A stretch of DNA of 58,914 nt from a bacterium (GTDB taxonomy: Bacteria > Patescibacteriota > Minisyncoccia > UBA6257 > JAGOQP01): positions 1 through 58,914 of the forward strand of contig JAKAIF010000002.1 in assembly GCA_021814445.1 (NCBI GenBank), read 5' to 3'. Numbering within the stretch: the stretch's first letter is position 1; each line of letters starts with the position of its first letter. Made by a program: the position numbers and the translations under genes. Below are positions 13,261 through 14,009 of the stretch, piece after piece. Under the pieces are notes generated by a model. It saw only the letters and a program-made list of their open reading frames with translations, ran no database searches and was not told the DNA's origin.

Positions 13261-13326
13261 TTATATCCCGACGCTTCGGTCGGGACCCCGACCTCTTTGA
13301 AAAAAGAGCGTCGGGGCTATATACTA
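13261..13326 (+). repeat. Double-hairpin plus -10 cassette, copy A
   Basis: TTATATCCCGACGCTTCGGTCGGGACCCCGACCTCTTTGAAAAAAGAGCGTCGGGGCTATATACT, 6 nt before the rsmI ATG. Confidence 0.8.
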
Positions 13327-13331
13327 CTTTT

Positions 13332-14009
13332 ATGTTATACGTCATCGGAACCCCAATTGGAAATTTGCAGGATATGTCTCCCCGAGCAGTTGAGGCGCTC
13401 AAAAAAGCCAATACTATTTTAATGGAAAGTCCACAGGACTCATTACGTTTATTGAGTATCTTTCATATTCCTAAAAAAGGAGTTATTAAATACAATGATG
13501 CAAATGCAAAAGGGGTACTACCAAAAATACGTGAAGTTTTACAAATAGAAGATGTAGCTCTCATTACTTCAGCGGGAATGCCGGGAGTGAGTGACCCGGG
13601 GTTTCATGTGGTTAAAGCGGCGCGAGAATTAGGGATTGAGGTACAAGTAATTCCCGGACCCTCAGCGGTTACGAGCGCTATCGCATTGTGTGGTATGCCC
13701 ATATATGATTTTTCATTTGTGGCGTTTTTACCTCGTACCGAAGGAAAGTTAAAAAAATTGTTTCAAGAATATAAAGAGAGAGAGCAAGCGATGATATTTT
13801 TTGAATCGCCCTTTCGTATACAAAAATCAATGAAACTTTTAGAGACTACTTTTCCAGAAATTTCTGTATTTCTCGCAAAAGAACTTACTAAAAAATTTGA
13901 ATCATCGGTTTATGGAACACCAAAGGAAATAAATATGTGGCTCTCAGAGAAGAAAGAGCATACGAAGGGGGAGTTTGTGGGAATAGTGGGATTTCATCTA
14001 AAATCATAA
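13332..14009 (+). CDS. rsmI: 16S rRNA (cytidine1402-2'-O)-methyltransferase
   Basis: MLYVIGTPIGNLQD N-terminus. The track start at 13215 runs through the repeat. Confidence 0.85.
   Translation: MLYVIGTPIGNLQDMSPRAVEALKKANTILMESPQDSLRLLSIFHIPKKGVIKYNDANAKGVLPKIREVLQIEDVALITSAGMPGVSDPGFHVVKAARELGIEVQVIPGPSAVTSAIALCGMPIYDFSFVAFLPRTEGKLKKLFQEYKEREQAMIFFESPFRIQKSMKLLETTFPEISVFLAKELTKKFESSVYGTPKEINMWLSEKKEHTKGEFVGIVGFHLKS

Follow-up and report, generated by a model that had tools for sequence, protein, structure and literature searches.

The window analyzed here is the whole 58,914-nucleotide stretch of DNA under study (contig C40 of a Patescibacteria genome designated G000, which comprises 695 kb in 46 contigs with 39% G+C and derives from a mine-drainage metagenome). 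It carries, near the starts of several genes, copies of a non-coding element of two adjacent hairpins that is termed the doublet (Table 1). The genes downstream of copies A, B, C and D are assigned by Pfam to TP_methylase/RsmI-type, EamA, Cpn10/GroES and BacA/UppP, respectively. Copy A is placed between divergent genes and copy B, from the list of open reading frames, lies 3' of a co-directional gene and not in a divergent gap. The near-identity of A and B described in the initial annotation is borne out by a match over approximately 60 nt, with two substitutions and one indel that are all located in the apical loop of hairpin 2. The window contains two occurrences of a 25-nt core pattern, which none of 100 shuffles produced, and two adjacent hairpins are predicted by folding for both copy A (-34.9 kcal/mol, z -6.8) and copy B (-33.1 kcal/mol, z -6.0).

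Table 1. Doublet copies and associated features in the window, and further copies on other contigs of G000. G001 and G002 are species of the same genus.
Feature	Position	Strand	Remarks
Copy A, whole	13261-13325	+	Upstream of rsmI
Copy A, duplicated target TATAT	left 13262-13266, right 13318-13322	+	Empty sites in G001, TTATATACTatttttATG, and G002, TATATACTgaatacATG
Copy A, hairpin 1, TCCCGAC-GCTTCG-GTCGGGA	13266-13285	+	One repeat unit; sequence, fold and covariance-model match of 92 bits
Copy A, hairpin 2, CCCCGAC-[CTCTTT GAAA AAAGAG]-C-GTCGGGG	13286-13316, through terminal CT 13318	+	Inverted unit with inner stem CTCTTT/AAAGAG; sequence and fold
Copy A, apical TTGAAA of hairpin 2	13297-13302	+	17 nt upstream of TATACT
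Copy A, -10-like TATACT, 6 nt, rsmI ATG	13320-13325, ATG 13332-13334	+	Resident leaderless-type promoter core
Copy B, whole	54824-54760	-	Upstream of EamA gene
Copy B, hairpin 1, same sequence as in copy A	54799-54818	-	Sequence, fold and covariance model
Copy B, hairpin 2 and terminal CT	54767-54798	-	Sequence and fold
Copy B, apical TTTCCA of hairpin 2	54788-54783	-	17 nt upstream of TATACT
Copy B, TATACT, 7 nt, EamA ATG	54765-54760, ATG 54752-54750	-	G002 ortholog, cataatatttatcttATG, without hairpins
Copy C, TTCCGAC-GTGAA-GTCGGAA and CCCCGAT-CGAAGC-ATCGGGG	25781-25819	+	groES leader; flanked on both sides by TAATACATACTA
Copy D, truncated, hairpin 1 only, one mismatch	4045-4062	+	Approximately 125 nt before uppP ATG (4187)
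Further G000 copy	C18:654-779		
Further G000 copy	C9:670-760		
Further G000 copy	C41:3911-3818		
Further G000 copy	C18:2672-2711		
Further G000 copy	C39:5946-5984		
Further G000 copy	C13:29130		
Further G000 copy	C13:29271		

The doublet is approximately 45-55 bp in length and is composed of the unit NNCCGAC-G-(3-5 nt)-GTCGGNN followed by an inverted copy of the unit and a terminal CT. Hairpin 2 is the inverted form of a hairpin 1-type unit (CCGAC-G.. compared with ..C-GTCGG, with loops GCTTCG and CGAAGC), and because of this inversion the doublet is nearly its own reverse complement, so that a covariance model scores it on both strands. The stems are GC-rich with 6-7 bp, loop length is 5-6 nt for hairpin 1 and 5-30 nt for hairpin 2, long forms have hairpin 1 arms separated by up to approximately 50 nt, and the termini are inverted (CCCGACGCT). 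A covariance model and a scan of the genome and its relatives, as proposed in the initial annotation, gave more copies and strong covariation of the stems in a large sample. The three outer stem positions are variable yet complementary, with at least eight covarying arm types (TCC/GGA, CCC/GGG, CTC/GAG, TTC/GAA, AGC/GCT, GGC/GCC, CCT/AGG and CAC/GTG), and the inner CCGAC-G junction is invariant across distant lineages. For hairpin 2, whose 3' arm was left out of the search pattern, the variable arm base shows 53 C-G, 20 T-A and two T-G pairings and no C-A (p = 3e-16, with p-values overstating independence as copies from related genomes are non-independent). The maintained pairing points to a folded single strand of DNA or RNA, and the invariant junction points to sequence-specific recognition.

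The comparison with the sibling species G001 and G002 covers most of each genome, with an identity to G000 of approximately 80-88% for G001 and 72-80% for G002. At rsmI the site is filled in G000 (TTATAT[CCCGAC..GGGGC]TATATACT-N6-ATG) and empty in both siblings, and this comparison places the doublet within the box, where TAT(AT) has been duplicated. The eamA site is filled in G000 (copy B) and empty in G002. At uppP a remnant of hairpin 1 stands beside a 125-nt replacement in G000, a full but eroded doublet is present in G001 and the G002 site is empty. The rarA site is empty in G000 and filled in G001 and G002, a dedA-like gene has a long-form doublet in G002 and empty sites in G000 and G001, and the copy at G002:C4:16946 corresponds to an empty site in G001. 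Copying appears to be recent, with A and B differing at three of approximately 62 positions while the genomes differ by 12-28%. The copy on contig C9 of G000 is nested, having a second doublet of 41 nt within the 3' arm of hairpin 1 that is absent in the G002 ortholog, and decay is apparent in orthologous copies of G001 that read CCCAAC and CTCTAAC and in an ortholog of the C41 copy that has lost the inner stems. The filled and empty sites and the near-identical paralogous copies support the portability of the hairpin module claimed in the initial annotation. Judged from these sequences, the near-identity of paralogs, the filled and empty sites, the nesting and the decay form the signature of a repeat that is mobile or at the least copy-and-paste and not of a conserved regulator.

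By the covariance model, 78 of 301 genomes and 65 of the 197 genera of the order contain the doublet, in a patchy distribution and with up to 13 matches per genome (both strands counted); approximately 11 loci of G000 share these stems. The exact pattern is found in at least 120 stretches of a species-representative collection, nearly all of them metagenome-assembled genomes (MAGs) of Parcubacteria type that include Kaiser-, Adler-, Nomura-, Yanofsky-, Doudna-, Zambryski- and Taylorbacteria and others. The contexts of 76 copies comprise 27 within open reading frames, 15 beside tRNA genes and 34 that are otherwise intergenic, and copies are also found behind stop codons. An in-frame copy in SecA forms a 19-residue insert compared with the G000 SecA and has CTGAAC on both sides; other in-frame copies are located in EF-G, DnaK, LeuRS, IleRS, MnmA and a beta-CASP RNase, with 14-19 residues being added. 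The encoded peptides include ..VGTPTxASG.. and ..PDRSVG... sequences. Structural RNAs also carry the element, within the RNase P RNA of genome G012 and as inserts in the 23S rRNA of genome G117.

The promoters of the genus provide the context for copies A and B. In G000, G001 and G002 starts were predicted by a crude open reading frame rule and -10-like hexamers upstream were counted. TAnnnT hexamers peak exactly 6 nt before the ATG (60, 51 and 61 in the three genomes compared with a background of approximately 25-30), TATACT is by far the commonest with 82 of the 273 hexamers at this spacing, and TTG is enriched 16-17 nt upstream of TAnnnT hexamers. On this evidence TTGnnn-17-TATACT-6-ATG is the predicted general promoter of the genus and of a leaderless-mRNA type, with putative transcription starts. 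The CTATATACT box, for which leaderless transcription had been suggested, fits a -10 element for leaderless mRNA in its spacing peak and TTG enrichment, and is not private to the cassette. The rsmI, eamA and uppP orthologs of sibling species have a TATACT-type promoter without hairpins, and the rsmI promoters of G001 and G002 read TTATATACT-N6-ATG. The retention of the box in these hairpin-free rsmI orthologs contradicts its assignment to the cassette.

The hairpins do occupy the -35 region as had been proposed. At copies A and B the loop of hairpin 2 provides TTGAAA and TTTCCA, respectively, at a 17-nt spacing from TATACT (10/12 and 9/12 in a consensus scan), which gives both copies the layout of a sigma-70-type leaderless promoter with a -35-like hexamer, a 17-nt spacer, a -10-like hexamer and an ATG 6-7 nt further on. 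The 3' arm of hairpin 2 together with CTN has a constant length of 17 nt throughout the 10 promoter-proximal copies in the genus, with TTGAAA, TTGTAA, TTTCAA, TTTCCA, TTCCAA and TTTTAA as the loop hexamers at the -35 position. The spacing of 6-7 nt between box and ATG that was given for the cassette is correct for A, at 6 nt, and for B, at 7 nt, and does not extend to C and D. An insulator or terminator role, also suggested earlier, is not borne out: there is no T-run, copy A lies between divergent genes and the uppP copies directly follow a canonical terminator. A terminator scan at copies A and B found no terminator-like site, the tails reading CTATATAC.. and similar; T-rich tails do occur at the copies designated T1 (C18:2672) and L030.

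Copies C and D are arranged differently. The stems of copy C have changed in a paired way, as was first noted, and hairpin 2 ends 35 nt before the groES ATG (25855). A TTGATT-16-TATAAT promoter (25745-25772) is located just 5' of copy C and stands directly before the doublet in both G000 and G002, and on sequence grounds the groES mRNA is predicted to begin with copy C. In G002 the orthologous copy shows partial decay, GAC/GTC having changed to GAT/ATC. As the groES copy is downstream of a promoter and copies A and B are within one, the doublet has no single position relative to promoters. Copy D retains hairpin 1 only, consistent with the initial annotation, has one mismatch and directly follows a canonical terminator. 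An Rfam scan of the window and five further loci gave no family at or near the copies, the best match being CRISPR-DR35 with 17 bits (E = 1.3).

Genomes of the Candidate Phyla Radiation (CPR) are tiny and streamlined and are usually thought to be repeat-poor. The double hairpin likely represents a small selfish repeat, palindromic and non-coding, of Patescibacteria (CPR, Parcubacteria/Paceibacteria) rather than a dedicated regulatory device. The presence of the same element in frame in essential proteins, in rRNA and in RNase P RNA argues for selfish DNA and against a promoter device. The element spreads as DNA, sibling species differing through gain, loss, nesting and erosion of copies, and survives where the harm is small, namely in leaders and promoters, after stops, beside tRNAs, as added helices of 23S rRNA and RNase P RNA and as in-frame protein residues. 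At rsmI and eamA it inserted into the TAT(AT) within the -10-like box of a leaderless-type TTGnnn-17-TATACT-6/7-ATG promoter, and a short duplication rebuilt TATACT beside the ATG. The fixed 17-nt length of the hairpin 2 3' arm places an A/T-rich loop (TTGAAA or TTTCCA) at the displaced -35 position, which probably explains the tolerance of the insertions. Transcription would begin on the ATG with or without the element, and the insertion would be tolerated for that reason. Mobilization would probably proceed through a folded single strand recognized at the CCGAC-G junction. Such a repeat would be a traceable source of three oddities of CPR genomes, which are rRNA and RNA expansions, lineage-specific protein loops and a fast turnover of promoters. 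For annotation, these hairpins are not to be read as riboswitches, operators or terminators, and the natural pairs of filled and empty promoters are useful for the study of leaderless promoters in organisms not yet grown alone.

Several observations weigh against a selfish repeat. The flanking duplication is short and non-uniform, with 3-5 nt at rsmI, 4-6 nt at SecA and none at the tRNA sites, and some of the flanking repeats may be tandem leader heptads, the flanks being low-complexity A/T. The asymmetric promoter-proximal copies all have the same orientation with hairpin 2 beside TATACT, which could reflect either directional insertion or selection for a -35-like loop. A conserved function could likewise explain why the core is nearly identical in very distant lineages. 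A Y1/HUH transposase gene (the REP-associated tyrosine transposase family, RAYT, PF01797; REP, repetitive extragenic palindromic) has no match in G000, G002 or G005, and among the 78 doublet-bearing genomes it was found in 29 and not in 49; five inspected loci of Y1 genes showed no flanking CCGAC hairpins. The contigs of the population metagenome at copy A break at the repeat, with no empty-site joint found among them, and the metatranscriptomes of the same mine-drainage study contain nothing from this organism in the groES region.

The constant geometry at the promoters lends itself to a portable promoter, that is, an element that is mobile but is kept for supplying a -35 hexamer at the right distance, creating or strengthening leaderless promoters and shielding them from upstream DNA. 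The consensus scores of copies A and B agree with this, as do the TTnnAA placed at exactly 17 nt in 10 of 10 promoter-proximal copies, their one common orientation and the occurrence of an "inner hairpin + CGTCGGGG + CTnTATACT" module at at least 10 loci of the genus. We consider it rather unlikely, however, given that orthologs have the -10 box and the ATG spacing without the element, that TTG is present in only three of the 10 loops, that copies C and G are downstream of or far from such a box and that orthologous copies decay; the inner hairpin of hairpin 2 is also present in intragenic copies (SecA) and so is not a promoter adaptation. Selection could instead act on a functional RNA, with the doublet being a transcribed 5' end or a processing or stability signal that protects against a 5' exonuclease or serves as an RNase III-type site. 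At groES, 7-8 nt separate the end of the TTGATT-16-TATAAT promoter from hairpin 1 in G000 and G002, which would make the doublet the 5' end of the transcript, and the strong covariation, the very stable predicted folds and the copies inside transcribed RNAs would suit such a role. Copies A, B, D and L031, in contrast, have no usable -10 element at the right distance 5' of hairpin 1, the presence of the element differs at the same genes between siblings, copies are found in frame in proteins, the near-symmetric doublet scores on both strands and no Rfam family matches, which together make an RNA function quite improbable.

A protein-binding DNA site, either an operator or a recombinase core site read through the inverted CCGAC arms, would account for the invariant CCGAC-G core in distant lineages, for the 5-6 nt between the arms, as in recombinase core sites, and for the frequent location of copies at synteny breaks or edges of inserted DNA (A, B, D, E and the tRNA/GIY-YIG junctions). 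It is nevertheless very improbable, as the outer stem bases covary rather than staying conserved, the arms of hairpin 1 are approximately 50 nt apart in long forms, the hairpin 2 loops range over 5-30 nt and no linked regulator or recombinase gene was seen; the arm distance and the covarying stems likewise do not fit an operator for a dimeric protein, although a protein-binding site had been suggested at the outset. A broader scheme would treat the doublet as a phylum-wide modular element that marks the boundaries of small mobile cassettes (tRNA-splitting GIY-YIG units and replacements at synteny breaks) and that rewires leaderless promoters as a -35 donor and insulator, with an enzyme reading the folded CCGAC-G hairpin. 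This is possible yet doubtful; if it were true, a single 50-bp pair of hairpins would influence how promoters turn over, how rRNA and RNase P RNA expand and how protein loops are gained in the CPR.

For the selfish repeat, the candidates for a mobilizing enzyme gave no partner. Across the 301 genomes, Y1/HUH genes occur in 29 of the 78 doublet carriers compared with 81 of 301 overall, a weak association (odds ratio 1.95, p = 0.025), and RAYT/Y1 was rejected as the mobilizer on account of this weakness and the many carriers without the gene. The GIY-YIG nuclease was rejected as a discriminating partner because the family is present in 290 of the 301 genomes; PF01541 is found at 10 places in G000. 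Neither G000 nor the surroundings of Y1 genes yielded an autonomous insertion sequence that shares its ends with the doublet, other transposase families not having been searched. In G001 (C3:54500-54900) a 253-amino acid open reading frame with a weak Y1_Tnp match has its start bracketed by a 20-nt inverted repeat (ACGATTCCCGACATCGTAAG / CTTACGATGTCGGGAATCGT) that contains a TCCCGAC/GTCGGGA core, which may be due to chance or to a distant link with the doublet family.

The doublet can be compared with several known families of repeats. Rickettsia palindromic elements (RPEs) reportedly populate intergenic DNA and RNA genes and also insert in frame into essential protein genes, and we know of no transposase for them. 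The likeness lies in small palindromes in a reduced genome with function-blind insertion that includes RNA genes and in-frame peptides, and the doublet behaves in this way with its in-frame copies in conserved proteins and its copies in structural RNAs. The two differ in their unrelated sequences, in the host phylum and in size, RPE-1 being approximately 100-150 bp compared with a compact doublet of approximately 50 bp with two 6-7-bp GC stems, and for RPEs we know of no description of insertion next to tRNA genes or into the -10 box of a leaderless promoter. The Correia elements of Neisseria (Correia repeat enclosed elements, CREE, or Neisseria miniature insertion sequences, NEMIS) are non-autonomous inverted-repeat elements that measure 100-155 bp, are bounded by terminal repeats of 26 bp and contain an IHF site; they duplicate a short A/T target (TA), and their ends together with the target can form promoters. 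They share with the doublet the duplication of a short A/T target and the formation of promoter parts but are unrelated in sequence, and we know of no report of them in frame in essential proteins. The same genome also contains TATG-targeting hairpin elements, classed as MITEs (transposable elements of the miniature inverted-repeat kind), which are likewise non-coding palindromes at gene 5' ends that rebuild the signal they hit, but which form a separate family of approximately 135 bp with arms CCAGGTAGTGAAAG.. and a TATG target.

Repetitive extragenic palindromes and bacterial interspersed mosaic elements (REP/BIME), including the GTAG- and CGTC-tagged REPs, are imperfect palindromes of 20-40 bp that are mostly inverted dimers and vary among related species (Di Nocera et al. 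2013, PMC3733652). REPs are occasionally inside genes, and the CGTC REPs, among which RPE-4 and RPE-6 are counted, have no dedicated transposase and carry a terminal CGTC tag, 8-9-bp stems that begin with A/T pairs, 4-5-nt loops and a 3-bp tail (PMC3733652). The doublet resembles them as a head-to-head inverted dimer with interspecies variation and some intragenic copies. In contrast to GTAG REPs, its units NNCCGAC..GTCGGNN(CT) contain no GTAG and G000 has no RAYT gene, and in contrast to CGTC REPs its CGTC is at the loop side without a terminal tag and its stems are GC-rich with 6-7 bp. It further differs from REPs in its low copy number (approximately 1-13 model matches per genome) and in having many copies upstream rather than downstream of genes. 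As it lacks the tag, stem and RAYT features of REPs and no parent insertion sequence was found, the doublet is not filed as a GTAG REP, a CGTC REP or a MITE. By analogy, its closest counterparts in behavior are the Rickettsia palindromic elements and the REP/BIME dimers. Literature searches for this element in Parcubacteria found no description, and it apparently represents an undescribed family among the selfish palindromic repeats.

The copies beside tRNA genes have a common layout, in which a local 5' fragment of tRNA comes first, followed by the doublet, what remains of a D-loop, a short spacer and finally the intact tRNA. In seven Parcubacteria MAG loci (L180, L186, L214, L223, L166, L199 and L181) an exact copy of the first 10-40 nt of the tRNA is found 5' of the intact tRNA, with the doublet interrupting the D-loop (once the anticodon loop) and a 10-30-nt spacer leading to the intact tRNA. 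The tRNA fragment with its doublet looks like a nuclease-free miniature of a tRNA-splitting GIY-YIG cassette. On contig C9 of G000 a small GIY-YIG gene lies in between, which links the doublet to the tRNA-splitting cassettes. A further GIY-YIG gene of 98 amino acids is placed between a doublet/TATACT promoter and gpmI in G000 (C18:640-1110) and is absent in G001; its 5' hairpin (CCCCC..ATGCAT..GGGGG) is conserved and accompanied by an ATGACCCAGT leader. A related leader with repeats precedes ruvA at C11:27090-27430, where G001 has an eroded doublet. Among the protein inserts, the 1236-amino acid IleRS of a Candidatus Paceibacteria MAG (L157) contains a histidine-phosphatase domain insert in addition to an in-frame doublet near residue 1110.

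The surroundings of copies A and B have been rearranged. A 316-amino acid open reading frame upstream of copy A (window 12237-13187, minus strand), which has no Pfam match, replaces a different, co-directional gene of G001 and G002, and for this reason copy A is at a synteny break; copy B is also at a synteny break relative to G002. In metagenome run X4 a contig over window positions 13269-13298 has the shared hairpin core and then continues as ..CCAAAAGAGCGTCGGAGCTTTATACTTATT, a third variant that is absent from G000 and presumably comes from a related strain at the same site.

A conserved non-coding region with long-range pairing of AAGATCGCAG .. CTGCGGATCTT encloses CCGAC hairpins in G000 (C13:29050-29450; L004 1550-1950), in G002 (C11:25560-26000) and in G012 (C1; L017). 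It is partly tandem-duplicated in G002, has no Rfam match and from its pairing is a candidate structured RNA.

G-free leaders composed of tandem 7-nt units (TTAATAC/TTACTAC/ATACTAC) in 2-4 copies stand just before the ATG of many genes, as in window positions 25820-25854 and 10770-10820, C19:21060-21110 and C44:11200-11260. The 695 kb contain 20 occurrences of TAATAC[AT]TACTAC and 91 of CTTAATAC, and sequence of this type also flanks copies C, E and G. Such leaders could be -10-like boxes in a stack or, alternatively, unstructured sequence for ribosome loading. In 65% of the predicted G000 genes a T directly precedes the start codon, a TATG context that fits the TATG-targeting hairpin elements of G000. 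GGAG-like motifs are enriched 3-7 nt before approximately 60 starts. A loss of the anti-Shine-Dalgarno sequence, considered from AAACAATTACAT after helix 45 of the 16S rRNA, was dropped since GGATCCTC is found approximately 57 nt further on and the GGAG-like motifs are enriched. The 3' end of the G000 16S rRNA gene (C26:19700-19900, minus strand) reads AAACAATTACATATTTTTAG directly after helix 45 and not GATCACCTCCTT, which may reflect an insertion close to this end of the gene or a changed anti-Shine-Dalgarno sequence.

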